From a virus (taxonomy: Duplodnaviria > Heunggongvirae > Uroviricota > Caudoviricetes): a stretch of DNA of 10,681 nucleotides. Shown in pieces: positions 1-10,681 of this stretch (position 1 is its first letter; the number at the start of each line of letters is the position of its first letter). Location of the stretch: the IMG/VR virus record IMGVR_UViG_2671181127_000010, positions 1 to 10,681 of that record. The stretch is one strand, 5' to 3'. A program made the translations under genes and the position numbers. Below the pieces are notes generated by a model that saw only the letters and a list, made by a program, of their open reading frames with translations, did not search any database and was not told the DNA's origin.

Positions 1-1242
1 ATGGCGAGAAAAACACCCCCATTAACCACAGTGCAGATCAAAGCAGCCAGACCAGCACAAAAGGAGTACACCCTACAGGACGGTGGGGGGCTTTTTCTCC
101 TGGTCAAACCGTCCGGATCAAAACTCTGGAGATTTTCCTACTACCGACCATCGGACAAAAAAAGAATATTACTTAGTTTTGGATCGCTTGATGATGTTTC
201 CCTGGCTGATGCCAGAAAACGCCGTAGCGAGTACAGGGCGTTAATTCTTGCCGGAACTGACCCTCAGGACCACGAGAGGCAAAAACGAGAGGCAGAGGCC
301 AGAAGACAGGGGAATACGTTCGAAAATGTGGCTGCGGCATGGTATCAGGTGAAAATCAGCCAGAATCTTGCACCCAACACGATTAAAGACATCTGGCGAT
401 CGCTGGAGAAATATATATTCCCGTTCATCGGCAACACGCCAATAGATACCCTCACCGCCCGAAGGTTCGTTGAAGTGCTTACCCCCATCAAGGAACGCGG
501 CAACCTGGAAACACTCAAGCGGGTTTTACAGCGCGTTAATGAGGTAATGGATTACGCCGCCAACAGTGGGCTGATTGATGCCAATCCGGCTATGAATGTG
601 CGTAAGGCGTTCCCCTCCCCTGTAAAAAAACATATGCCAACAATCAGGCCCGAGCAGTTGCCGGAACTTATGCAGGCTTTATCCGTATCGGCAACAGAAC
701 GGCAAACCAGGCTACTTATTGAGTGGCAGCTACTGACCGTAACCCGTCCAGTTGAAGCATCGTCGGCACGCTGGGAAGAAATCGACATGGAGGCGCAACG
801 CTGGACCATACCCGCCGGACGCATGAAGATGCGCCGCGACCACGTTATCCCGCTTTGTGACCAGGCTATGGCAGTGCTGGAGGCTATGAAACCAATCAGC
901 CACCACCGCGATTATGTTTTCCCGAGTCTGAAAGACCCACAGCAGCCGATGAACAGCCAGACCGCTAACGCAGCATTACGACGCATGGGGTTCGCTGGCG
1001 TGCTGGTGTCTCATGGATTACGCGCCATATTCAGCACAGCAGCGAACGAGGAAGGATTCGAGCCGGACGTAATAGAGGCGGCACTTGCCCACGTCGACAC
1101 CAACGAAGTTAGACGGGCATACAACCGGAGCAACTACATAGAAAAACGCATCGTGCTGATGCGCTGGTGGGGCGAATTTGTCGAGGCTGCGGCGACGGGC
1201 GTAACCCTCGCCAGTGGTAAAAGGGGTATCCGAGCCGTGTAG
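1..1242 (+). CDS. int: Tyrosine recombinase / integrase, P4-family (413 aa)
   Basis: Full ORF from window position 1. N-terminus LFLLVKPSGSKLWRFSYY resembles the P4-type integrase N-terminal domain; C-terminal catalytic-type motifs HGLRAIFST and a terminal Tyr region (RAYNRSNY). Followed by alpA, the typical satellite arrangement. Confidence 0.9.
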   Translation: MARKTPPLTTVQIKAARPAQKEYTLQDGGGLFLLVKPSGSKLWRFSYYRPSDKKRILLSFGSLDDVSLADARKRRSEYRALILAGTDPQDHERQKREAEARRQGNTFENVAAAWYQVKISQNLAPNTIKDIWRSLEKYIFPFIGNTPIDTLTARRFVEVLTPIKERGNLETLKRVLQRVNEVMDYAANSGLIDANPAMNVRKAFPSPVKKHMPTIRPEQLPELMQALSVSATERQTRLLIEWQLLTVTRPVEASSARWEEIDMEAQRWTIPAGRMKMRRDHVIPLCDQAMAVLEAMKPISHHRDYVFPSLKDPQQPMNSQTANAALRRMGFAGVLVSHGLRAIFSTAANEEGFEPDVIEAALAHVDTNEVRRAYNRSNYIEKRIVLMRWWGEFVEAAATGVTLASGKRGIRAV

Positions 1243-1319
1243 CTGTACAGAAAACCAGTAAAAACTACGAAAACCATGTAAAACCGTCGTATAATTGCAT
1301 CAAATTTAACGACAAGGCC

Positions 1320-1571
1320 GTGAAACATGAAACCGTTAAGATGCAAAAAAATATCAGATGCAATTGCGACGGGCTGCAACTGGCCCTGATGGTTCAGCAT
1401 GAATTTTGGTCAACCTACGATCCGGAGGACAGAACGACGGCCCCATCAAAAAAACAGGTAGTAGATTTTCTGGTATCCCGTGGCGCTTCCAGAAATCTGG
1501 CGGTAAGTATTGATAAGGTCGTACGTCCGGCATCTATGAAGATCGGAGGCAGGCCCAAAAAATGGCGGTAA
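1320..1571 (+). CDS. Hypothetical small protein (83 aa from GTG 1320; in-frame ATG at 1341)
   Basis: ORF between int and alpA, ends 10 bp before a clean intrinsic terminator; weak RBS, start uncertain; no recognisable motif. Confidence 0.3.
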   Translation: MKHETVKMQKNIRCNCDGLQLALMVQHEFWSTYDPEDRTTAPSKKQVVDFLVSRGASRNLAVSIDKVVRPASMKIGGRPKKWR

Positions 1572-1581
1572 CAATCCTGGA

Positions 1582-1606
1582 AGCGGCAGAAATGCCGCTT
1601 TTTTTA
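1582..1606 (+). terminator. Rho-independent terminator (AGCGGCA-gaaa-TGCCGCT plus T-run)
   Basis: Perfect 7-bp stem, 4-nt loop, followed by 8 T residues. Confidence 0.6.
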
Positions 1607-1632
1607 TAATTCCATTTCAAATCATCAATATA

Positions 1633-1720
1633 AAAAACGGTGTATACCGTTTAAAAACGGTGGGAACTGTTTTTACCCATATCCGATGATTTACCGTATT
1701 TGTCACCGGAATACACCGGA
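1633..1720. promoter_or_regulatory. Repeat-containing region upstream of alpA (candidate promoter/operator)
   Basis: Direct repeat AAAAACGGTG at 1633-1642 and 1653-1662 (20-bp phasing); small palindrome ACGGT-gtat-ACCGT at 1637-1650; tandem CACCGGA at 1704-1710 and 1714-1720. Confidence 0.3.
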
Positions 1721-1738
1721 TTCACAAGGTAAATCACG

Positions 1739-1945
1739 ATGGAAGCAATCAGAAAAATTATCTTTCGCCAGGAAGTAAAAAAAATTATCCACATCAAGGC
1801 AGACAGCACGCTGCAAAGCATGATCAACGCCGGAGAATTTCCGCAGGGTTTTCGCGTTGGTTTACGCCGTCGCGGATGGTATGAGGATGATGTGTTGGCC
1901 TGGCAGAAAGAACGCGAACAGGAAGCACGCGGAACGGCTGCTTAA
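1739..1945 (+). CDS. alpA: AlpA-family (prophage CP4-57 regulatory, Vis-like) small DNA-binding regulator, 68 aa
   Basis: Size, position downstream of a P4-family integrase, and motif FRQEV...GEFPQGFRVGLRRRGWYEDDVLAW matching the AlpA pattern (RLPEV...GxFP.P.KLG.R...W...V..W). RBS AAGG 9 nt upstream. Confidence 0.75.
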   Translation: MEAIRKIIFRQEVKKIIHIKADSTLQSMINAGEFPQGFRVGLRRRGWYEDDVLAWQKEREQEARGTAA

Positions 1946-2093
1946 CGGGTATCACAGATATGACAAACACGAAAAAAGCGGCCCCGATATGGAGCCGCCT
2001 TTCTGAACAATTAACCCGCTGCGCCTTATGTGTATATGATCCCAAACATAAGCACGGGGATGATAGCCGCTATCAGGCTGGTGGGCAATGCAA

Positions 2094-2282
2094 TCAGTCT
2101 GGTTCAGTTCGTTGCCATACCTGCAATGAGCGCGTTTCCCTGTACTCTTTAAGGAATTGCTCAAGGGCAAAAGCACATGGCGCGAATCTTTCTGATTCAT
2201 GCTCTATCTTTCTGCGCCGTCTTTTCCGTGCCGGTGATAATGTTTTGGTCAATTCTTTATCGGTCATTGTGTTGTCCTGCAT
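2094..2282 (-). CDS. Hypothetical small basic protein (62 aa; alternative start at 2267)
   Basis: ORF downstream of the RHH gene on the same strand; contains an RRRRK run; weak RBS. Low support. Confidence 0.2.
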   Translation of the reverse strand: MQDNTMTDKELTKTLSPARKRRRRKIEHESERFAPCAFALEQFLKEYRETRSLQVWQRTEPD

Positions 2283-2324
2283 AGCAATGCGCCGTAATAC
2301 CTTACACCACGGCGCTGATGGTGA

Positions 2325-2630
2325 TTACTCTGGTTCTTTGGTCTTGCGGCGCTGGAGTTCTTCACGTGCGACAGTGACGAGCTGCCCGATCTCCTCGGCG
2401 GCTTTGATTCCGAGTTTTTCCACCTGCGCCAGTGCATCGAGCGAAGAAACTAGGGGATTTTCTCCACTTCCTTCTGCCTGGCGCCGGGCGATCTCACCGC
2501 GTACAGCCGTAACTATAAAATTCGCTTTAGTTTCCCCTGGCTGTAGGGATGCCTCAATGCCACTCACTACTTCATGTGGAAATCTGGCATTCAGTTGCTG
2601 TGACTTATTGTTAACAGAACTCCTGGACAT
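2325..2630 (-). CDS. Ribbon-helix-helix (Arc/Mnt-like) DNA-binding protein, 101 aa; candidate master repressor of the island
   Basis: Start ATG at 2630-2628 (minus) preceded by strong RBS GGAGGTG. N-terminus QQLNARFPHEVVSGIEASLQPGETKANFIVTAV fits the Arc/Mnt RHH pattern (hN.R.P.EV...A...G.S.N..I...V). Divergent from the Ash operon across an operator-bearing intergenic region. The long ORF-track version (2325..2810) is an N-terminal over-extension. Confidence 0.65.
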   Translation of the reverse strand: MSRSSVNNKSQQLNARFPHEVVSGIEASLQPGETKANFIVTAVRGEIARRQAEGSGENPLVSSLDALAQVEKLGIKAAEEIGQLVTVAREELQRRKTKEPE

Positions 2631-2660
2631 GTTTGCACCTCCCATTAATAACGGGATGCA

Positions 2661-2727
2661 GTGTAATACAAAAGTGAATACCAAAAAAGACTTGAAATGG
2701 TATTCACCTAAATGTAATGTGAATACC
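2661..2727. promoter_or_regulatory. Operator array in divergent promoter region (9-bp inverted repeats GTGAATACC / GGTATTCAC)
   Basis: GTGAATACC at 2674-2682 and 2719-2727, GGTATTCAC at 2699-2707; TGTAAT immediately 5' of sites at 2662-2667 and 2713-2718; possible -35 TTGAAA at 2692-2697 lying inside the first inverted repeat. Confidence 0.55.
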
Positions 2728-2765
2728 ACAAGTGCTGATACATGCAATTCAGCAATTGAAACGAC

Positions 2766-2800
2766 GAAGCCCCGCACTGTTGGAGCAGTAACGGGGCTTC
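2766..2800 (+). other. Stem-loop in the 5' leader of the Ash operon (GAAGCCCCG ... CGGGGCTTC)
   Basis: Perfect 9-bp GC-rich inverted repeat with 17-nt loop, 28 bp upstream of the 2829 start codon; no T-run, so not a canonical terminator. Confidence 0.3.
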
Positions 2801-2828
2801 TAACCAACAACGTAAACTAGGAGCCGTT

Positions 2829-3386
2829 ATGGTTGCTGTAAATCATATACCACACCTTGTACACACACAAACGGCCTTTGTGTGGCGTTTTCTGGCCCTG
2901 AATATCGGAGAAAAAAACCGCTTGATCGCCACCAGCAAAAATGGCTATGATTCCCGCGCACCTCATAAAACGGGTGTCGGGATTAGCCTCCTGAAAACAA
3001 CTGAAGCGCACAGCACGCGCCCTGCGTGTTTTTTTGTGCCGCATAGTCACACCTTATCAATGGTGGGCTGTACGGGGGCGGAGCAATCCGCGCCGGTTTC
3101 TTCAGTGTCCGGTAAGGCTAACCCTGTACAGTCCGCCACCAGCGAAATTAGCCTTTTGCGTGGCGGTTATCTTAACCACACTGAGGAGGCTGCCAACATG
3201 GCTACTATCCCTACCCTTGTACATTCTCAAACCGCATTTATCTGGCGCTTTATCATCTTTGGCGCGTCAGAATCTCAAATCATCCACGTAACCGCCTGGA
3301 CGGAACGCGAAGCGCGTAGCCGTTGCCCGTCAGGTTGTGTTGCTGTATTCGCCGCCCGTATTCGTCAGGGGTCACATCATGCGTAA
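2829..3386 (+). CDS. Ash-family-like protein with C-terminal Icd-like domain (185 aa)
   Basis: RBS TAGGAG 6 nt upstream of ATG. Contains two copies of the motif VH.QTAF.WRF and a C-terminal TEREAR...VFAARIRQG block, which I recall as the signature of Ash / Icd-like small proteins of P4-type islands (family name from memory, not verified). Confidence 0.55.
   Translation: MVAVNHIPHLVHTQTAFVWRFLALNIGEKNRLIATSKNGYDSRAPHKTGVGISLLKTTEAHSTRPACFFVPHSHTLSMVGCTGAEQSAPVSSVSGKANPVQSATSEISLLRGGYLNHTEEAANMATIPTLVHSQTAFIWRFIIFGASESQIIHVTAWTEREARSRCPSGCVAVFAARIRQGSHHA
3198..3386 (+). CDS. Icd-like small protein, 62 aa: in-frame internal start inside the 2829..3386 ORF
   Basis: Strong RBS GAGGAGG 7 nt upstream of internal ATG 3198; product MATIPTLVHSQTAFIWRF...TEREARSR...VFAARIRQG is a complete Icd-like unit. 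Could be a separately translated nested product. Confidence 0.4.
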   Translation: MATIPTLVHSQTAFIWRFIIFGASESQIIHVTAWTEREARSRCPSGCVAVFAARIRQGSHHA

Positions 3387-3843
3387 AAACCGCTTGCAAA
3401 AAATTATAACGGGGCTGTATGCTTCCCCAGTCGCCCACATGGCGACCGGGTTTAGCAGCCTGAATACTACAGCGGACAGCCGCTTACATTCCGATATGCG
3501 GTTTTTTTGTGTCCGTAAACCTACCCATACCCGCATTATGGCGGGGCGTAACGGGGGAGCCTTTGCGCTCGCTGGTTCCTGTAGTGCCAGTCTGCTAACC
3601 CTGTTACGTCTCGCCACCCCGTTTAGCAGCGTAGTAGCGAGACTCCTTAATTTCACTACAGGAGCCTTTCACATGGCTGTATTCACACGCCCTTATTTTG
3701 TCTGGCGCTTTATGCAGTGCCACCACAGCAGCATTGATATTTACACCGTTACCGCAGCCACTGAACGCGAAGCCCGCGCCCAGTTGCCGCACGCACATCT
3801 GATTTTTGTCGCCCGTATTCGTCAGGGGGTGTGCCATGCCTGA
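3379..3843 (+). CDS. Ash-family-like paralog with C-terminal Icd-like domain (154 aa from ATG 3379)
   Basis: Motifs FFCVRKPTHTRIMAG (paralogous to CFFVPHSHTLSMVG in the upstream gene) and YFVWRF...TEREARAQ...IFVARIRQG. Start 3379 overlaps the upstream stop by 8 nt; the ORF-track start 3337 is probably an over-extension. Confidence 0.55.
   Translation: MRKNRLQKIITGLYASPVAHMATGFSSLNTTADSRLHSDMRFFCVRKPTHTRIMAGRNGGAFALAGSCSASLLTLLRLATPFSSVVARLLNFTTGAFHMAVFTRPYFVWRFMQCHHSSIDIYTVTAATEREARAQLPHAHLIFVARIRQGVCHA
3673..3843 (+). CDS. Icd-like small protein, 56 aa: in-frame internal start inside the 3379..3843 ORF
   Basis: RBS CAGGAG 8 nt upstream of ATG 3673; product MAVFTRPYFVWRF...TEREARAQ...VARIRQG. 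Confidence 0.35.
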   Translation: MAVFTRPYFVWRFMQCHHSSIDIYTVTAATEREARAQLPHAHLIFVARIRQGVCHA

Positions 3844-4156
3844 TATGTCAAATTACCAGTACCTGATTAATCCGCATTTTAAGTGTGATCATGATATTGC
3901 TAAGAAGGTTTATTCCGCTGCTTATGGGGCTACTGACAATATATCAATGGGTATTGCGTCAATTGGTAGCCTGATGTGGTATGCGTCAGAAAATAAGGAA
4001 TATGACGAAAAGGCCATGCGCATTGATATGGGTAATATCGGTTTGTTACTGGCAATGCTTGGGCAGTTTGATATTTCGTTACGGTGCACCATTGAAAATG
4101 CCAAAGATGCATTAAATGCTATAAAGAAAGCGAATACTGATTTAAATCGGGGATAA
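3836..4156 (+). CDS. Hypothetical protein, 106 aa, AT-rich cargo-like gene
   Basis: ATG 3836 with RBS GGGGGTG, overlaps upstream stop (ATGCCTGA). About 35% GC in the first 60 nt versus clearly more GC-rich flanking genes. No recognisable motif. Confidence 0.55.
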   Translation: MPDMSNYQYLINPHFKCDHDIAKKVYSAAYGATDNISMGIASIGSLMWYASENKEYDEKAMRIDMGNIGLLLAMLGQFDISLRCTIENAKDALNAIKKANTDLNRG

Positions 4157-4162
4157 ATAATC

Positions 4163-4462
4163 ATGAGAACATATTTATCTGGCTTGACTGCCAGCGGCCC
4201 CGCTCGGCCTGAAATCCGCCCCGGAGATATTTTCAGAGATAACTACGGTGGCGTTGTTGAGATTAAAGGCGTGGCAGAACGGCGCATTACCTACCGCCGT
4301 GAAGGCTACGAATATGATTGCGTGATGCCTGTTTATCAGTTCCGGCGTGATTTTTCTCTGGTACAGGCAGCGCCCCGCAGTAAACCAACCAGCAGGGAGA
4401 AAGCACGCGCCAATATTCAGGAAATAAGAAAGATGTTGAATGTATTCAGGGGTAAAAAATGA
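4163..4462 (+). CDS. Hypothetical protein, 99 aa, immediately upstream of and coupled to the primase
   Basis: ATG 4163; stop overlaps primase start (ATGA at 4459-4462). Basic C-terminus. Function unknown. Confidence 0.55.
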   Translation: MRTYLSGLTASGPARPEIRPGDIFRDNYGGVVEIKGVAERRITYRREGYEYDCVMPVYQFRRDFSLVQAAPRSKPTSREKARANIQEIRKMLNVFRGKK

Positions 4463-6207
4463 AACTGGCACCGAACGTAAAAAAACAACCACGCGGAATA
4501 AAACACAAAGACACAGAGGTAATTATTTTCGCGGGTAGTGATGCGTGGGCACATGCAAAACAGTGGCAGGAGCAGGACGGCCCCGCATCCGGCGATAATG
4601 TGCCGCCTGTGTGGCTTGGGCCAAATCAGCTTGCCGAACTTGATGCACTGAAAATTGTTCCTGATGGAAAAAAACGCGTAAGGCTGTACCAGGCCGGAGA
4701 ACTGGATTTGGTGGAGACCAAAAAGATTGGTCAGAAGCTGGCGGCGGCAGATATTCAGGACGCAAATTTTTACCCCGAAGGAATGCACGTCCAGAAGTGT
4801 GAAAACTGGCGGCGCTATCTGAATGCTGAGCGTGAAAATATTGCCGCAGGGCTTACCATGCCGGAGCAGAAAAATACGCAACTGGCACAAATGGCAGACA
4901 GTGAGCGCGCGCAGCTGCTTGCCGAGCGCTTTGATGGCGTTTGTGTGCATCCGGAAAGTGAAATCGTTCACGTATGGCGCGGCGGGGTATGGTGTCCGGT
5001 CAGCACAATGGAACTTAGCCGCGAAATGGTGGCGATCTATTCAGAGCACAGGGCCACTTTCAGCAAGCGCGTAATCAATAACGCCGTGGAAGCGTTAAAA
5101 GTTATTGCCGAACCAATGGGCGAGCCGTCCGGCGATTTGTTGCCGTTCGCCAATGGTGCGCTTGACCTGAAAACGGGGGAATTTTCCCCGCACACGCCGG
5201 AGAACTGGATCACCACGCACAACGGCATTGAGTACACGCCACCAGCACCAGGGGAGAATATCTGCGACAACGCGCCAAACTTTCATAAATGGCTTGAGCA
5301 CGCAGCCGGAAAAGACCCGCGCAAGATGATGCGTATATGTGCCGCGCTGTACATGATTATGGCGAACCGGTACGACTGGCAGATGTTTATTGAGGCCACC
5401 GGAGAGGGCGGTAGCGGTAAAAGTACATTCACGCACATAGCCAGCCTTCTGGCAGGGAAACAGAACACGGTAAGCGCTGAAATGACCTCACTTGATGATG
5501 CTGGTGGACGTGCGCAGGTTGTCGGGAGTCGTCTTATCGTCCTGGCTGACCAGCCGAAATATACAGGCGAAGGAACGGGCATCAAGAAAATCACGGGCGG
5601 CGACCCCGTGGAAATAAACCCGAAATATGAGAAGCGTTTTACGGCGGTAATCAGGGCGGTGGTGCTGGCTACCAACAATAACCCGATGATATTCACCGAG
5701 CGGGCCGGAGGTGTGTCACGCCGTCGGGTGATTTTCCGGTTCGACAACATTGTAAGGGAGGACGAAAAAGACAAGGATTTGCCGGAGAAGGTCGCGGCTG
5801 AAATCCCCGTAATTATCCGTCGCTTGCTGGCTAATTTTGCCGACCCTGAAAAGGCACGGGCTTTATTACTGGAACAGCGCGACGGTGATGAAGCTCTGGC
5901 AATAAAGCAACAGACGGATCCGGTTATTGAGTTTTGCCAGTTCCTGAATTTTCTGGAGGAAGCACGCGGCCTGATGATGGGCGGCGGTGGCGATTCAGTG
6001 AAGTACACGACCAGAAACAGCCTTTACCGCGTCTATCTGGCGTTTATGGCATACGCAGGCAGGAGCAAACCGCTAAACGTGGCTGAGTTCAGCAAGGCCA
6101 TGAAGACAGCGGCAAAAGTTTACGGACATGAATATATTACGCGGAGAGTTAAGGGAGTAACGCAGACCAACGCAATTACAACTGATGATTGTGACGCGTT
6201 TTTATAA
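4459..6207 (+). CDS. Replication protein: primase / D5-type SF3 NTPase (P4 alpha C-terminal-like), 582 aa
   Basis: Walker A GEGGSGKST encoded around 5401-5427 in the D5/P4-alpha-type context (phage/plasmid primase P4-family C-terminal NTPase); RBS AGGGG 7 nt upstream; followed directly by an iteron array. Confidence 0.88.
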   Translation: MKLAPNVKKQPRGIKHKDTEVIIFAGSDAWAHAKQWQEQDGPASGDNVPPVWLGPNQLAELDALKIVPDGKKRVRLYQAGELDLVETKKIGQKLAAADIQDANFYPEGMHVQKCENWRRYLNAERENIAAGLTMPEQKNTQLAQMADSERAQLLAERFDGVCVHPESEIVHVWRGGVWCPVSTMELSREMVAIYSEHRATFSKRVINNAVEALKVIAEPMGEPSGDLLPFANGALDLKTGEFSPHTPENWITTHNGIEYTPPAPGENICDNAPNFHKWLEHAAGKDPRKMMRICAALYMIMANRYDWQMFIEATGEGGSGKSTFTHIASLLAGKQNTVSAEMTSLDDAGGRAQVVGSRLIVLADQPKYTGEGTGIKKITGGDPVEINPKYEKRFTAVIRAVVLATNNNPMIFTERAGGVSRRRVIFRFDNIVREDEKDKDLPEKVAAEIPVIIRRLLANFADPEKARALLLEQRDGDEALAIKQQTDPVIEFCQFLNFLEEARGLMMGGGGDSVKYTTRNSLYRVYLAFMAYAGRSKPLNVAEFSKAMKTAAKVYGHEYITRRVKGVTQTNAITTDDCDAFL

Positions 6208-6219
6208 TTTTTTGTAAAA

Positions 6220-6446
6220 GCCCTCTACCCCATCTACCTGAATGAAATAAACGCATATTATTCAACATGATAAGTGGGTAGAGGGCTAGGTAGAAGGCTA
6301 ATAAAACCTCTCTACCTCTTCTACCATGATTAAGATCGTTTGTGAGGGGCGGGTAGAGGATGGGTAGAGGGCCACGAAAGCCCTCTACCCATCTGAAAGC
6401 CGCGCCATTACTGACATGAAAGATGATTAGGTAGAGAGGTAGAGGA
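6220..6446. repeat. Iteron array / putative replication origin (11 copies of GGTAGAGG / CCTCTACC and variants)
   Basis: Octamer copies at 6222, 6231, 6277, 6289, 6309, 6318, 6352, 6363, 6382, 6430, 6438 in both orientations; perfect 14-bp inverted repeat GATGGGTAGAGGGC (6359-6372) / GCCCTCTACCCATC (6380-6393); AT-rich segment 6239-6275 between repeat clusters. Confidence 0.7.
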
Positions 6447-6493
6447 GGTGCACCACAACCTAAAACTTTTTAAACACGAGGGTAAAAATAAAA

Positions 6494-6772
6494 ATGCACA
6501 CATCAGGAAGATTTAACAAATCACTCAAAAAACGCAAAGACAGAACAGCACCAAGATATAAAGCGCTGGAGATGACAGAGCACGCCTTAAAGGTGGCTAT
6601 AAAGGTGATAGACATCACAGCGGGAGAAGGATACTCGAAAGCACATCCCGAACTAATAAGCGCATTCATGACCACGGCGGCGGCAAACTTTGCCACGCTG
6701 ACAGAGCGGGAGATTGCAGAAGCGGAACAGGTAACAACCATCAACGTTAAAACCGGAGAGGTGGAATCATGA
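6494..6772 (+). CDS. Hypothetical protein, 92 aa
   Basis: ORF directly after the iterons; stop overlaps the SSB start (ATGA at 6769-6772); RBS-like GAGGGT about 11 nt upstream. Confidence 0.5.
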   Translation: MHTSGRFNKSLKKRKDRTAPRYKALEMTEHALKVAIKVIDITAGEGYSKAHPELISAFMTTAAANFATLTEREIAEAEQVTTINVKTGEVES

Positions 6773-7179
6773 CAGCACAGATAGCCGCTTACGGGCGGCT
6801 GGTGGACGACCCGCAGGTAAAACAGACCAGCAAGGGTACACCGATGACGCTGGCGCGTATGGCGGTATCTTTGCCATGTAGTCAGGCGCAGGATGGGCAG
6901 GCGACGTTATGGCTATCGGTCATCGCATTTGGTAAGCAGGCCGACTTCCTGGCTAAACATCAAAAAGGCGACGTTGCCAGCGTATCCGGCACGATGCAGG
7001 TCAGCCAGTGGACCGGACAGAACGGGGAAACGCGGCAGGGTTATCAGGTTATTGCAGACAGCGTAATCAGTGCCCGTGCGGCACGTCCTGGCGGGAACAG
7101 ACGCAAAACCACAGGCACACAGGGTAATCAGCCACCAGCGGGAGACGATGACCCCTACGGTGATGATATTCAGTTCTGA
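6769..7179 (+). CDS. ssb: Single-stranded DNA-binding protein (SSB family), 136 aa
   Basis: N-terminal OB-fold pattern IAAYGRLVDDPQVKQTSKGTPMTLARMAVS and LWLSVIAFGKQADFLA...QVSQWTGQNGETRQGYQV parallels E. coli SSB; Gly/Pro/Gln-rich linker; acidic C-terminal tip DDDPYGDDIQF analogous to the SSB DDDIPF tail. RBS GGAGAGG upstream. Confidence 0.8.
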   Translation: MTAQIAAYGRLVDDPQVKQTSKGTPMTLARMAVSLPCSQAQDGQATLWLSVIAFGKQADFLAKHQKGDVASVSGTMQVSQWTGQNGETRQGYQVIADSVISARAARPGGNRRKTTGTQGNQPPAGDDDPYGDDIQF

Positions 7180-7189
7180 GGGGGTGACG

Positions 7190-7462
7190 ATGGTACATGA
7201 CCGCATAGCGGAGGAACTCGAGGCAAAAGGCTTTTACCGGAGGGCATCGGCGCGATGGGGTGAAGTCATGCTGCTGGTGGAGACAGACAAGGAACGGCAT
7301 CAGGTTACGATGCGACGGCTGGAATGTTCCAGGAAGGCACAGAAGCCACCGGAGCCGCCGGATAACTTCGGAGACCTGAGAAAGGCAGTAGATCGCACTT
7401 ATGCTGAAATGGGTATAGATGGTGTAAGCGATGAAATATGGCGTAATTACCCAGACAGCTAA
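7190..7462 (+). CDS. Hypothetical protein, 90 aa
   Basis: ATG 7190 with RBS GGGGGTGA, 11 nt after the SSB stop; the ORF-track start 7070 overlaps the SSB and is an over-extension. Followed by a terminator. Confidence 0.55.
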   Translation: MVHDRIAEELEAKGFYRRASARWGEVMLLVETDKERHQVTMRRLECSRKAQKPPEPPDNFGDLRKAVDRTYAEMGIDGVSDEIWRNYPDS

Positions 7463-7468
7463 TCAACA

Positions 7469-7490
7469 GCCGGAGTAATCCGGCTTTTTT
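7469..7490 (+). terminator. Rho-independent terminator (GCCGGA-gtaa-TCCGGC plus T6)
   Basis: Perfect 6-bp GC stem, tetraloop, T-run. Confidence 0.7.
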
Positions 7491-7496
7491 GTACCC

Positions 7497-7540
7497 AAAA
7501 AAAGCCCGATAAGTACAGGAGGCATCTTATCGGGCTTTTG
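7497..7540. terminator. Second hairpin, potentially bidirectional terminator (A-run, GCCCGATAAG ... CTTATCGGGC, T-run)
   Basis: Perfect 10-bp stem at 7504-7513 / 7526-7535, flanked by A7 upstream and T4 downstream. Confidence 0.5.
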
Positions 7541-7573
7541 CATATGAGGTTTTTTTTGGTGCACTGACACACA

Positions 7574-7666
7574 TGATCGGGATCATCATTTCATAATTTG
7601 CAACACAACTCAACATCATTGCATAAAATGCAATCATGATTATAATCAGATCTGGATGAACATCCA
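7574..7666 (+). promoter_or_regulatory. Sigma70-type promoter with overlapping palindromic operators, upstream of the capsid module
   Basis: TTGCAT (7619-7624), 16-bp spacer, TATAAT (7641-7646). Palindromes: TGATCggGATCA 7574-7585; TTGCAT-aaa-ATGCAA 7619-7633 over the -35; TGATTATAATCA 7637-7648 over the -10; CTGGATG-aa-CATCCAG 7651-7666 at the predicted transcript start. Confidence 0.55.
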
Positions 7667-7702
7667 GTTATGATTTTTTAAGTCAAAGAGGAATTTCTTA
7701 CT

Positions 7703-7909
7703 ATGGCTGAAGAGAAAAAAGGCGGTGTTTCGGTGTACATAAGCCCCGACATCGTGAAGGCGCTCAAGGAACGCCACCAGCAGAACGTAAAAGCAGGCAT
7801 TGCGGCAGGACTTGATCCGCTGGCGATGGTTGAGCCGTCAACAGGCTGGCAGGTACGCGCCTATTTACGCGCGGCGCTGGGTATGAATCAGGTTCACGGG
7901 GGTGAATAA
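7703..7909 (+). CDS. Hypothetical small protein, 68 aa, first gene of the capsid module
   Basis: RBS AAGAGGA 10 nt upstream; stop overlaps the capsid gene start (TAATG). VSVYISPDIVKALKERH could be a beta-strand/helix DNA- or protein-binding element; function unknown. Confidence 0.6.
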   Translation: MAEEKKGGVSVYISPDIVKALKERHQQNVKAGIAAGLDPLAMVEPSTGWQVRAYLRAALGMNQVHGGE

Positions 7910-8964
7910 TGACAGTAAAAGCAATAGCACTTAACACTAACCAGCTTTTCGCGTACCTGAATCGCGAGGATATTGCGGAATTTAAATTCAGTCCGCTGTT
8001 TACCGCGCTGTTTTTCCCGAACGTGGCGACATTCAACACACAGGACATCATGTTAGATAACCTGGATATTGAAGAAGTCACTATGTCGGCGTTTTGTTCG
8101 CCTATGGTTGGTAGCCAGGTTCAGCGCGATAAAGGGTACGAAACCAGCATTATTCGCCCTGGCTACATGAAGCCAAAACACGAAATCGATCCATTAAAAA
8201 CAATAATGCGCATGGCTGGAGAAGATCCGGCACAGCTTAACGACCCTACCTACCGCCGTATGCGCCTGATTACTGGCAACATGCGCCGCCAGATAAACGC
8301 CATTAAAGCGCGCGTGGAATGGCTGGCGGTGAATGCGATAACGACCGGAAAAAACATCATTGAGGGCGAAGGCATAGAGCGCTATGAAATCGACTGGAAG
8401 ATACCGGAAAAAAACATCATAGAGCAGGCCGACGGTAAAAAATGGTCAGAGCAGGACAAAGACATACACGACCCAATCTATGACATTGAGCTATACGCAG
8501 ATCAGGCAGGTTGCCCCGCAAACGTCATGATTATGGGCGTTGATGTATGGCGCATGTTACGCAGCTTTAAAAAATTCCGTGAACTGTACGATCTCTCCCG
8601 TGGTTCAGAATCCGCCGCAGAGCTGGCATGTAAAAACCTGGGAGAAGTGGTGAGCTTTAAAGGCTATCTTGGTGATCTGGCCCTTATCGTCTATTCCGGC
8701 AAATACACTGACAGCGACGGCACAGAAAAATATTTCCTTGCGCCTGATTTGCTGGTCCTGGGCAACACCAACAATAAAGGGCTGGTGGCCTATGGTGCGA
8801 TTATGGAACAGGAAGCGGTAAGAACGGGCGCAACGCAAAACATGTTTTACCCGAAAAACTGGATTGAAGACGGCGATCCGGCGATTGAGTACGTGCAGAC
8901 ACACAGCGCGCCGCAGCCTGTTCCGGCAGATATTCGCAAATTTGTTACCGTCAAAATTGGTTAA
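7909..8964 (+). CDS. Major capsid protein, phage lambda gpE family (351 aa)
   Basis: Multiple blocks match my recollection of lambda gpE: FKFSPLFTALFF vs FKFDPLFLRLFF; PGYMKPKHEIDP vs PGYVKPKHEVNP; EDPAQLNDPTYRRMRLITGNMR vs EDPQNLADPAYRRRRIIMQNMR; WSEQDKDIHDPIYDIELYA vs WSKRDKSTYDPTDDIEAYA; YPKNWIEDGDPAIEY..QTHSAP vs YPKNWVTTGDPAREF..IQSAP. Similar length (351 vs 341 aa). Confidence 0.85.
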   Translation: MTVKAIALNTNQLFAYLNREDIAEFKFSPLFTALFFPNVATFNTQDIMLDNLDIEEVTMSAFCSPMVGSQVQRDKGYETSIIRPGYMKPKHEIDPLKTIMRMAGEDPAQLNDPTYRRMRLITGNMRRQINAIKARVEWLAVNAITTGKNIIEGEGIERYEIDWKIPEKNIIEQADGKKWSEQDKDIHDPIYDIELYADQAGCPANVMIMGVDVWRMLRSFKKFRELYDLSRGSESAAELACKNLGEVVSFKGYLGDLALIVYSGKYTDSDGTEKYFLAPDLLVLGNTNNKGLVAYGAIMEQEAVRTGATQNMFYPKNWIEDGDPAIEYVQTHSAPQPVPADIRKFVTVKIG

Positions 8965-8975
8965 CGGTGGATTCT

Positions 8976-9311
8976 ATGAACACTCCATACATTGAGTTAT
9001 TTGCAGGCAGTCAGCAGGTATCAACGACGCTGGTACATTTTGCCGCTGATGCTGGCGTTATTCAGGAATTTACCCCGCTGATGCTGGCGGACAATGGCGA
9101 GTTTAAGCCGTGGGATGGTCAGGAATCTGGCAAGGCTGTTTATCTGACTTCGTATCCTGTGGACACGTCAAAGCAGAAATCAGCACAGTGTTACAAGACG
9201 GGGATATTCAATATTGCCGCCGTTAACTGGCCTGAGAGCGTCGACACCGATGCGAAAAAATGCGCCGCCTTTGCGGGTTCCGGCGTATCCGTTCAGCCGC
9301 TGGCCCGATAA
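8976..9311 (+). CDS. Head decoration protein, lambda gpD-like (111 aa from ATG 8976; alternative GTG start 8967)
   Basis: TPLMLA, WDG, and C-terminal YKTGIFN...VNWPESVDTDAKKCAAFAGSGVSV parallel lambda gpD ([44 protein letters not shown]). RBS GGTGGA 5 nt upstream of ATG 8976. Confidence 0.8.
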   Translation: MNTPYIELFAGSQQVSTTLVHFAADAGVIQEFTPLMLADNGEFKPWDGQESGKAVYLTSYPVDTSKQKSAQCYKTGIFNIAAVNWPESVDTDAKKCAAFAGSGVSVQPLAR

Positions 9312-9323
9312 GCAGGGGGAACG

Positions 9324-9737
9324 ATGGCAACGAATGAAAGCATCATGGCGCTACCGCTGGCGAGTAAATTTAAAGAAGAAGCGCGGGCAATGGCTGACAG
9401 AGGTTTATCAACCTACGAGGCCGTATATCAACTCAACAAACTGGAAGAGCAGGACAAGCCGCGCGCTGATGCGATTATGGCGCTTCATGAGCATAAAGAC
9501 TATCAGCCGCTGTTACGTGCAATGGCAAACGTGCCATGTATTAGCGTCGATAATGCTCGTGAAATCCTGAACATGACCATAGAGCAGGAGCGCCCAAAGG
9601 TTGCACCAGAGCTTACCGCAGCCTTTGAAAACTTTATGGACATGCACAGCCCGCAAGCCGTATCAGCTGGCATGGCATACGATGGCAGAAACCAGGGCGA
9701 TGACGGCGACATCGATCGCATACTGAAAACCATCTGA
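9324..9737 (+). CDS. Hypothetical protein, 137 aa, last gene of the capsid module
   Basis: RBS GGGGGA 5 nt upstream; acidic C-terminus; followed by a terminator and a cos site. No confident motif. Confidence 0.6.
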   Translation: MATNESIMALPLASKFKEEARAMADRGLSTYEAVYQLNKLEEQDKPRADAIMALHEHKDYQPLLRAMANVPCISVDNAREILNMTIEQERPKVAPELTAAFENFMDMHSPQAVSAGMAYDGRNQGDDGDIDRILKTI

Positions 9738-9743
9738 GACAAG

Positions 9744-9767
9744 GCCGGAGAAATCCGGCTTTTTTTT
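9744..9767 (+). terminator. Rho-independent terminator (GCCGGA-gaaa-TCCGGC plus T8)
   Basis: Perfect 6-bp stem, tetraloop, 8 T residues; near-identical to the hairpin at 7469-7490. Confidence 0.7.
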
Positions 9768-9768
9768 A

Positions 9769-9840
9769 CGGGTCCTTTCCGGCATATGGACCCGTTACGG
9801 GGCGGCGACCTCGCGGTTTTTCGCTATTTATGAGATTTTT
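9769..9840 (+). other. Lambda-type cos site, copy L (cosN core GGGCGGCGACCT at 9800-9811, cosB side to the right)
   Basis: 9800-9838 reads GGGCGGCGACCTCGCGGTTTTTCGCTATTTATGAGATTT, close to the lambda genome left end GGGCGGCGACCTCGCGGGTTTTCGCTATTTATGAAAATTTTCCGG. Preceded by a hairpin ACGGGTCC...GGACCCGT. Confidence 0.75.
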
Positions 9841-10187
9841 TGAGGGGGTGGTTGTTGTTTAATTGTTTGGTATATCTAATTGATAAGTAAGGTAAAAATA
9901 AAATAAATACAACAACCTTACGATGTATTTTGATGTCATTAATGTGAAAAAATTCAATGATATCAAATGGTTTTGTAAAAACACATGGTTGTTGTATCGC
10001 GTATTTGATGGCGTAACAGAAAGTGATTTTTAACTTTACCGCTCTGTAACTACGGATTATTCCATGCTGGCACGGAGAACGGCTACGGCATGACGCCACC
10101 CAGCCTATACAGAACAGTAAAGCCGATAAATTGTTAATCACGCGCAGCAATGCGTGTGATTTTTGCACACTTCCGGTTAACTGGTAC

Positions 10188-10286
10188 GATGTCCGGTTTT
10201 AGTGTCTGTTTTTTGCGCATGTCCGGTTCATGGAAAGCATGTTTTTATATTTTTCATATGGTTAACTTGCAGAGAAACCGGACATG
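10188..10286. repeat. Candidate cosB R-type elements for the R cos site (ATGTCCGGTT repeats)
   Basis: ATGTCCGGTT at 10189-10198 and 10219-10228 (direct), inverted copy AACCGGACATG at 10276-10286, partial copy TCCGGTT at 10172-10178; positioned about 40, 100 and 130 bp from the R cosN, resembling the R3/R2/R1 layout of lambda cosB as I recall it. Confidence 0.4.
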
Positions 10287-10292
10287 GATCCC

Positions 10293-10370
10293 GGAAAATT
10301 TTCATAAATAGTGAAAACGCGCGAGGTCGCCGCCCCGTAACGGGCCATAATTCCAGGAAGGACCCGACGA
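10293..10370 (-). other. Lambda-type cos site, copy R (cosN core at 10324-10335 on the minus strand, cosB side to the left)
   Basis: Reverse complement of 10293-10335 reads GGGCGGCGACCTCGCGCGTTTTCACTATTTATGAAAATTTTCCGG, two mismatches from the lambda left-end sequence over 45 nt. Forms a roughly 70-bp imperfect inverted repeat with copy L. Confidence 0.8.
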
Positions 10371-10399
10371 CACCAGACTATCAGAGCGATGGGGGCACA

Positions 10400-10681
10400 A
10401 TGACAGAAGCCGAACTACTGGGATTAATCCGCCGCGTCGCCGGAATCAGCCAGCAGCATGACGAACAGGCCACACAGCCGGACAGCGTGACCGCTGAAAA
10501 TTATGTGCGTGTTGTAGCGGAAGTGATGCGCCGTGATGGTATAGAACTTAATGGCGTTGATATGCGCAACATACGGAACCGCGTTCTTGAAATGCTGGCC
10601 TACAATCGCCGCGTTGAACTGTATCGGGAGAAAGAAAAAATAACGTACCACTGGAAGAAGCCGGAACGGCTGCGGCGGTAA
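10400..10681 (+). CDS. Hypothetical small basic protein, 93 aa, adjacent to the R cos site
   Basis: ATG 10400 with G-rich RBS; the ORF-track extension from 10202 runs through the cos site and is rejected. Ends at the window edge with TAA. Function unknown. Confidence 0.5.
   Translation: MTEAELLGLIRRVAGISQQHDEQATQPDSVTAENYVRVVAEVMRRDGIELNGVDMRNIRNRVLEMLAYNRRVELYREKEKITYHWKKPERLRR

Follow-up and report, generated by a model that had tools for sequence, protein, structure and literature searches.

The closest described relative of the locus examined here is EcCICFT073, the island that adjoins phoQ in Escherichia coli CFT073 and the type Gram-negative phage-inducible chromosomal island (PICI) (PMC6092414, PMC6739421). 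Its pair of cos sites, designated cos1 and cos2, was reported by Fillol-Salom et al. (2018 ISME J, PMC6092414; 2019 Mol Cell, PMC6739421). A plasmid that carries either site can be transferred by lambda or phi80; deletion of cos1 reduced island transfer, deletion of cos2 increased it, and deletion of both abolished it. The cosB of cos1 is recognized by a complex of RppA and the small terminase subunit (TerS) (PMC6092414, PMC6739421). The same authors called the island cosB sequences "completely divergent" from those of phages and left open the question of why there are two cos sites (PMC6092414, PMC6739421), and Murialdo and Feiss (2022; PMC9026076) treat only the cos1-type site. Our searches for literature on cos-site-mediated inversion, or on a later treatment of cos2, found nothing relevant. 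Here we analyze a stretch of viral DNA of 10,681 nucleotides (IMG/VR record IMGVR_UViG_2671181127_000010, positions 1 to 10,681; "the window") that, on sequence identity and gene content, is a PICI of the EcCICFT073 family, a small satellite of E. coli. The core observation of a cos pair is already in the literature; what is new is a variant without Rpp in which two cos sites of different specificity are both copies of phage sites.

The window resembles EcCICFT073 in family, in the position of its cos module between the same two open reading frames (ORFs) of 137 and 93 amino acids (aa), in its convergent cosN pair, and in its right arm, which corresponds to cos2 (97% identity over the inner side). 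It differs in its cargo and in one cosB: the EcCICFT073 arms flank rppA and the left one has a private cosB, whereas the left arm of the window has a prophage-type cosB. Among other satellites, the helper-embedded 11capE likewise lacks terS and rpp and has a copied helper cos (258 bp at 90% identity; bioRxiv 10.1101/2022.07.18.500453), and the cos-type Staphylococcus aureus pathogenicity islands (SaPIs) include SaPIbov5 as well as SaPIbov4, which has two putative cos sites (cited in PMC6092414). In 11capE and the SaPIs, however, one helper is mimicked, whereas the window holds two different mimics, convergently placed and bounding an invertible segment. Islands of the O157:H7 type share the window's flanks and mostly have two convergent cos sites, and the R3 region of their left arm is homologous to that of the window's left arm. 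They differ from the window in encoding, between the arms, their own 180-aa TerS of the Pfam family Phage_Nu1, and in a right-arm cosB that is only about 80% similar to one lying upstream of terS in another prophage.

Two convergent cos sites matching lambda

An earlier note on the window, made from its letters alone, described exact lambda cohesive-end cores on the two strands within an inverted repeat of about 70 bp, with a 512-bp AT-rich spacer between them. A repeat search recovered a single inverted repeat with arms of 72 nucleotides each (9769-9840 and 10295-10366), 83% complementary and with 454 nucleotides between them. The exact 12-mer GGGCGGCGACCT is confined, in the window, to one site in each arm (Table 1), and the two cores are separated by exactly 512 bp (9812-10323). 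The GC content of this spacer is 37.9%, versus 49.8% for the window, and its AT-rich part is the leftmost 190 to 245 bp, with only 29 to 30% GC. The description in the note held at each of these points.

Both arms were aligned to lambda (NC_001416) in cosN register. Each matched at 12/12 cosN positions. Over positions 13 to 48, the I2-like stretch, identity was 32/36 for the right arm and 27/36 for the left, in agreement with the note's remarks that the right copy tracks lambda through TATTTATGAAAATTTTCCGG and that the left copy leaves it after TTTATGAG; from position 49 onward, identity was at chance level (35 to 46 of 152). The 45 bases upstream of cosN agreed with lambda at 24 to 29 positions overall in ungapped register, and in the same register a cosQ-like core was found in each arm (GGGTCCTTTCC on the left and GGGTCCTTCC on the right) opposite the lambda cosQ region. 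Because these cores lie on the outer sides of both arms, the cosB sides face each other, as the note had proposed.

Compared with lambda cos (cosQ-cosN-I2-R3-I1-R2-R1), of which phage 21 has a specificity variant, the arms share the 12-base cosN, cosQ-like spacing, the I2-like stretch, and the presence of three repeats. The repeats themselves (GGTTGTTGT and ATGTCCGGTT) are unlike the CGTTTCC type of lambda, and the window differs further from lambda in having two convergent sites 512 bp apart, with terS after neither. No perfect IHF consensus was found in either arm; a one-mismatch site occurs at about position 74 of the left arm, near the lambda I1 position, with none in the right arm. These sequence comparisons support the assignment of both arms as genuine lambda-type cos sites, convergently placed on a phage satellite.

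An assembly artifact, or a junction of two adjoining elements, was considered and ruled out, since more than 50 loci and many complete genomes contain the pair. Mis-orientation by an assembler also appears unlikely: the arms share no exact stretch longer than about 25 bp, which is short of the usual k-mer sizes. Elsewhere in the window, the sole further site within two mismatches of the cosN core is GGGCGGCGACCC (5595-5606, one mismatch), inside the primase gene; with 0.85 sites expected at that threshold, it is probably a chance match.

Each arm copies the cos of a different phage group

The right arm matches a phage site. Over the 179 bp of 10189-10367, it shares 93.9% identity with phages PhiR12_1 to PhiR12_5; in these phages the matching sequence sits between Rz and nu1-A-W-B, and the homology runs from the cosQ core to just past the third copy of ATGTCCGGTT, about 60 bp before nu1. 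This element occurs three times in the right arm (10276-10285 on the minus strand; 10219-10228 and 10189-10198 on the plus strand) and nowhere else in the window, with 0.03 occurrences expected; the copies are R-like candidate TerS-binding repeats. Published supplementary sequences and deletion primers place cos1 in the left arm, upstream of rppA, and cos2 in the right, inverted arm, and the 144-aa gene between the CFT073 arms is rppA, with residues R21, T22, R25, and K29 as published. Positions 10101-10399 of the window are 97% identical to the cos2 side of CFT073 and agree with the published cos2 sequence. On these alignments, EcCICFT073 cos2 faithfully reproduces the cos of a phage group that is common in E. 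coli and that the earlier helper tests did not include.

The left arm matches prophages of another group. From cosN onward it is identical at 196 of 200 positions to a lambdoid prophage of strain Z247, directly upstream of terS-terL, and it is 92.7% identical to a prophage cos in strain 2014C-3599; the homology to prophages ends about 25 bp short of the terS ribosome-binding site. This cosB had no match in the phage collection and was found only in prophages of complete E. coli genomes. The left arm parts from cos1 of CFT073 after about position 35. Its outer (cosQ) half is island specific and remains with the flank when the inner segment inverts (window versus the flipped island L004).

Three copies of GGTTGTTGT lie in the left arm (9850-9858 and 9987-9995 on the plus strand; 9909-9917 on the minus strand), with 0.13 expected and none elsewhere in the window. 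Across 14 distinct versions of the left-arm cosB, the columns of this element were invariant in 27 of 27 cases, versus 80 of 131 other cosB3 columns (p = 8e-6), which suggests that the copies are R-like candidate TerS-binding repeats conserved above background. In both arms the first R-like repeat begins at position 51 from the cosN start, and the lambda R3 window is 49 to 64. In the phage homologues of both arms, cos lies directly upstream of terS, as in lambda-type sites, whereas the window itself has no terS.

Remnants of rpp between the arms

Between its arms, the window has neither an rpp gene nor the private cosB of cos1 (GGTGACACCACCACC...), both of which are present in EcCICFT073. A tblastn search with RppA against the whole window gave one credible match, a C-terminal remnant (10104->10039, 22 residues, 72.7% identity) that reads in the inverted direction. 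It is followed by a direct remnant (Table 1) in a segment, 10106-10164, that shares 97% identity with CFT073 DNA downstream of rppA. The junction at 10057-10120 appears to join a flipped CFT073-type module to one of the L007 type, with a short GGCTG match at or close to the joint. Judged from these scars, illegitimate recombination between two module types may have given rise to the rpp-less cassette.

The spacer gave no Rfam match at an E value of ≤1, and no sigma-70-like promoter site was found in it. Two ORFs, one of 114 aa on the minus strand (9824-10168) and one of 53 aa, were considered as spacer genes and rejected, as they overlap cos DNA that is intergenic in phages.

A different rpp truncation was observed in the relatives L005 (12281-12490; NZ_CP169399) and L077. 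There, a 69-aa ORF consists of the first 9 codons of a PhiR12-type terS (VATQTEVAR) followed by the C-terminal half of Rpp, from about residue 78, with the junction at a 9-bp sequence common to both genes (TTGCCAGGC). Its product would be the dimerization half of Rpp without the DNA-binding domain, placed behind a PhiR12-type cosB.

Probable use of the arms by two helper terminases

The TerS proteins of PhiR12 and of the Z247 prophage both belong to Phage_Nu1. Their C-terminal parts, of about 100 aa, are nearly identical, and their N-terminal parts, of about 65 aa, which hold the DNA-binding region, are unrelated. Since these N-terminal domains differ just as the R-like repeats differ, different repeats go with different binding domains. 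We consider it probable that the module is a dual-specificity packaging cassette, which would need no Rpp because the helper's own terminase would act on the arm that matches its TerS. The homology, the architecture, the conservation of the repeats, the pairing of cosB type with TerS domain, and the polymorphism in orientation described below are observed in the sequences. Among several roles for the second site, the earlier note had listed use by two different helper terminases; it is the role favored here, as the arms copy the cos of two prophage groups with different TerS DNA-binding domains.

In the proposed mechanism, the small terminase subunit of the helper would bind the arm whose R repeats match its DNA-binding domain and would bring the large subunit to cosN. 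Packaging would then run from cosN toward its own cosB, across the spacer, and round the island concatemer, to stop at the next copy of the same arm, met in the correct cosQ-cosN order. The function of lambda cos depends on orientation. The other arm would be met backwards (cosB, cosN, cosQ) and ignored, with no termination; because it is read in the wrong order, convergent placement would let two sites coexist without an early stop to packaging. We infer that each arm is cleaved and put to use and that the function under selection is a broader helper range.

From each arm, this geometry takes packaging over the spacer and out at the far side of the island. The convergent sites might on that ground be thought to drive in situ packaging outward into the chromosome on both sides, like lateral transduction, and the earlier note had listed bidirectional packaging and packaging of flanking chromosomal DNA among its possible roles. 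Packaging from cos, however, needs a second cos in the same orientation at a capsid-filling distance, and none is known in the flanking chromosome; in addition, homologous islands occupy several different att sites. The idea found no support here, and we regard outward packaging as extremely unlikely.

Dual specificity would have consequences beyond the window. The comparisons give a specific, testable answer to the open question of why there are two cos sites. If the answer is right, helper range would depend on exchangeable cosB cassettes in addition to Rpp or TerS proteins, and cosB type would predict which prophages mobilize which islands, including those of the pathogenic lineages CFT073 and O157:H7.

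Cos pairs in related islands

The region downstream of the 137-aa ORF was classified in 80 IMG/VR loci, 67 of which were classifiable; the cosB types are labeled here cosB1 to cosB5. Two convergent cos sites lie between the same flanking genes in 51 of the 67. The most frequent arrangement was cosB4 with a full-length 180-aa TerS, facing cosB5 (the O157:H7 type; 23 loci), followed by cosB1-rppA facing cosB2 (the CFT073 type; 11 loci) and cosB1-rppA facing cosB3 (8 loci). The rpp-less arrangement, cosB3 facing cosB2, was found as in the window in 3 loci and inverted in 5, and a single locus had cosB2 and a truncated rpp facing cosB3. The other loci had the TerS type with a single cos (8 loci), no canonical cosN in the interval (7 loci), or an RppC-like gene with no canonical cosN (1 locus). 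In general, one arm is paired with an Rpp or TerS that the island itself encodes, and the opposite arm resembles a phage cos; in the window, both arms are phage copies.

Conservation of the pair in related islands, which the earlier note had put forward as a check, is thus borne out. By its own terms the note would have been refuted by relatives with only one copy, the second being traced to an adjacent unrelated element. Relatives with a single cos or with none do occur, but the second copy belongs to the island's own packaging module and not to an unrelated neighbor.

In eight relatives (L052, L054, L055, L081, L082, L084, L086, and L090), no canonical cosN (≤1 mismatch) occurs between the 137-aa and 93-aa ORFs. 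The interval is only about 389 bp in seven of them; the other has an RppC-like gene whose product is 44% identical to RppA. In the O157:H7 strain 2159 (L006, 11295-11837) and in many IMG/VR loci, a 180-aa Phage_Nu1 TerS replaces Rpp. The N terminus of this island TerS is like that of the Z247-type prophage TerS, and the cosB repeats of these islands (TACACCAACC) are one to two bases off the repeats of the window's left arm (TACAACAACC).

Several points weigh against a selected dual specificity. In EcCICFT073, deletion of cos2 raised transfer by lambda and by phi80 (PMC6092414, PMC6739421), so that an additional cos can be costly when the helper does not match; this net cost with lambda may arise because cutting of both arms excises the spacer and leaves two right-type ends. 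Eight of the classified loci have a single cos, and seven have no canonical cosN in this interval. The island of strain GF4, which has the window's module type, has a degenerate right cosN (GGGCGTGGAACC) and a frameshifted neighboring ORF. The near-identity to prophage cos could reflect recent acquisition and not selection, and the rpp scars could mark the module as a decaying derivative. The left-arm cosB type and the rpp-less island are known from their sequence alone. In favor of the dual reading, potential helpers are common: PhiR12-type cos with terS occurs in 1141 of 5426 complete E. coli genomes and Z247-type cos with terS in 220 of 5426. A matching prophage accompanies the rpp-less module in at least 4 of 11 host genomes, among the matches listed (PhiR12 type in S1-CAM-02-A, NCTC9112, and SCU-172; Z247 type in LH50-c), and this co-residence is a lower bound and a raw count beside base rates of 21% and 4%.

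The gain in transfer on cos2 deletion, the scars of rpp between the arms, the single-cos relatives, and the degenerate site in GF4 also fit a module in which one arm works and the other is a relic of shuffling, or else acts negatively, as a decoy or sink for terminase that reduces packaging by phages that do not match. A relic or decoy agrees less well with the state of the arms: in each, the cosN is exact, and a cosQ-like core and all three R-like repeats, placed much as in lambda, are retained. The phage homology spans exactly the functional cos and no more, the R columns are more constrained than their surroundings, and both EcCICFT073 sites worked when cloned on plasmids. We judge it unlikely that only one arm functions.

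Inversion between the cosN cores

Eight complete genomes carry the 598-bp equivalent of 9769-10366, at 95 to 98% identity, reversed relative to the flanking island genes; the reversal was verified in three of them (L004, L092, and L093), and for the other five it follows from identical match geometry. The DNA between the arms can invert because the arms are inverted repeats centered on cosN, and the breakpoints are placed within the core of about 25 bp that is identical between the arms (CCGTTACGGGGCGGCGACCTCGCG), since the outer cosQ halves remain beside their flanks and only the inner halves trade places. The 512-bp inner segments of GF4 and strain 135 are identical but lie in opposite orientations. 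L030 has the window orientation but two single-nucleotide polymorphisms of the main flipped haplotype, and the islands of STEC2018-607 and S1-CAM-02-A occupy the same yejO/tRNA-Pro site in opposite orientations.

Inner segments reversed in silico were then used as queries against complete genomes, and full-length matches were counted. The flipped CFT073-type module, with rppA on the opposite strand, was found in 15 genomes, and the flipped O157-type (terS) module was found in 5. In WP4-S17-ESBL-08, whose island is at the same phoQ site as that of CFT073, the 727-bp inner segment is the exact reverse complement and the 346-bp right flank is identical. Both orientations thus occur in otherwise near-identical islands of three cargo classes, two of which include a pair free of substitutions since the inversion, and by these comparisons at least four independent inversions are needed overall. 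The polymorphism is previously unreported. An idea that flipping is limited to the rpp-less type, based on 0 of 42 gene-containing IMG/VR modules being flipped, was overturned by the 15 rppA and 5 terS modules flipped in complete genomes.

Sequence variants were also seen at and beside the cosN cores. The variant GGGCGTCGACCT is present on both arms in strain 135 and on the one arm examined in AR_0085 (loci L093, NZ_CP080260; L010, NZ_CP029741; L091, NZ_CP172217); in GF4 it is on the left arm, opposite the degenerate right cosN. Occurrence of the same change on both arms suggests sequence exchange between them. In a flipped CFT073-type island (L097, NZ_AP022049), the right flank and inner segment are identical to CFT073, and the left flank (the 137-aa ORF with the left cosQ half), which departs from CFT073 at 40 of 475 positions, belongs to the O157-island type. 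With a left flank of the other type, the recombination junction coincides with the left cos arm.

Segments bounded by inverted repeats and found in both orientations are familiar from Hin, Gin, Cin, and the shufflons, in which inversion is driven by a recombinase. The presence of both orientations in nature for three cargo classes, two of them with substitution-free pairs, might likewise mean that the pair is mainly an invertible switch, either of packaging polarity (which end of the island enters a new cell first) or of the expression of an enclosed rpp or terS. The window differs from the Hin and Gin type in that its repeats are predicted terminase cleavage sites and no promoter or gene is switched, there being no promoter-like site or gene inside the segment. 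No invertase gene was found in or beside 9769-10366; the window encodes a single recombinase, the tyrosine integrase, at its far end. When a gene lies inside the segment, orientation is strongly skewed (about 83 versus 15, and 473 versus 5), which resembles occasional recombination and not a regulated switch. Switching as the main role is, in our view, very unlikely.

A possible, though doubtful, explanation for the flipping is that the convergent cos pair is a recombinase-free invertible cassette and that terminase drives its inversion. Terminase would cut both cosN sites, and the inner fragment, whose ends would share a 5'-GGGCGGCGACCT overhang, could be rejoined either way; alternatively, a terminase break in one arm could be repaired from the other arm. 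Inversion could also arise by ordinary recombination, or by that of a phage recombinase, in the identical core, and the sequences are compatible with each of these routes. If terminase is responsible, cohesive-end joining of unlike molecules would explain how phage cosB modules are swapped in exactly at cosN, and the same joining would explain GGGCGTCGACCT on both arms of one island. By whatever route, the polymorphism is a clean natural case of a rearrangement centered on a terminase cleavage site, and it is relevant to the movement of packaging signals between phages and the elements that parasitize them.

Gene content of the island

The flanks of the module and the right arm are 95 to 97% identical to the matching parts of CFT073, and the same gene order is found in islands of complete E. 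coli genomes, such as the CFT073 island adjoining phoQ. As expected of a Gram-negative PICI, the window encodes an integrase, a primase, SSB, and capsid-like proteins, all on the plus strand within 10.7 kb, together with an Ash-family protein on the same strand. Homologous islands carry similar annotations. An alpA-like helix-turn-helix gene is annotated in related islands; the window was assessed on the other PICI genes. The features of the cos module and its surroundings are listed in Table 1.

Table 1. Positions of the cos arms, rpp remnants, and neighboring features in the window
Feature	Position	Strand	Basis
Tyrosine integrase	1-1242	+	ORF list, Pfam
D5-type primase	4459-6207	+	ORF list, Pfam
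137-aa ORF, conserved left flank of packaging module	9324-9737	+	ORF list
Terminator-like hairpin and T-run closing the upstream operon, directly before left cos	9741-9762	+	Terminator scan
Left cosQ-like side, core GGGTCCTTTCC at 9770-9780	9766-9799	+	Alignment to lambda and prophage cos
Left cosN core GGGCGGCGACCT	9800-9811	+	Exact match to lambda bases 1-12
Left inner side: I2-like stretch and cosB3	9812-10002	+	Match to Z247 prophage cos
Inverted rpp 3'-end remnant, 15 codons and stop (AGWRHAVAVLRASME, then stop)	10057-10104	-	tblastn; contiguous with rpp 3' flank as in L007-type modules
Direct remnant: last 4 rppA codons and stop (tat aca gaa cag taa), with rppA terminator hairpin at 10139-10156	10106-10164	+	CFT073 alignment, terminator scan
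Right inner side: I2-like stretch and cosB2, equal to EcCICFT073 cos2	10181-10323	-	Match to PhiR12 phages and published cos2
Right cosN core GGGCGGCGACCT	10324-10335	-	Exact match to lambda bases 1-12
Right cosQ-like side; GGGTCCTTCC is the reverse complement of 10356-10365	10336-10366	-	Alignment
93-aa ORF, conserved right flank of module	10400-10681	+	Kept in relatives

The 137-aa ORF is the final one in the block of capsid-like genes, and the cos module follows it in CFT073 and in the 80 IMG/VR loci; the ORF had no Pfam match, and some genomes annotate it as a "head-tail connector." Upstream of it, 7909-9311 codes for a 351-aa homologue of lambda E, the major capsid protein, and a 114-aa homologue of lambda D, the decoration protein. 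Strain JNEC-KY203 (L001, NZ_AP045179) has two related islands in one genome. One lies near clpS, with IS1 inserted after the primase gene and Mu-like transposition genes alongside, and the other lies at 1.72 Mb.

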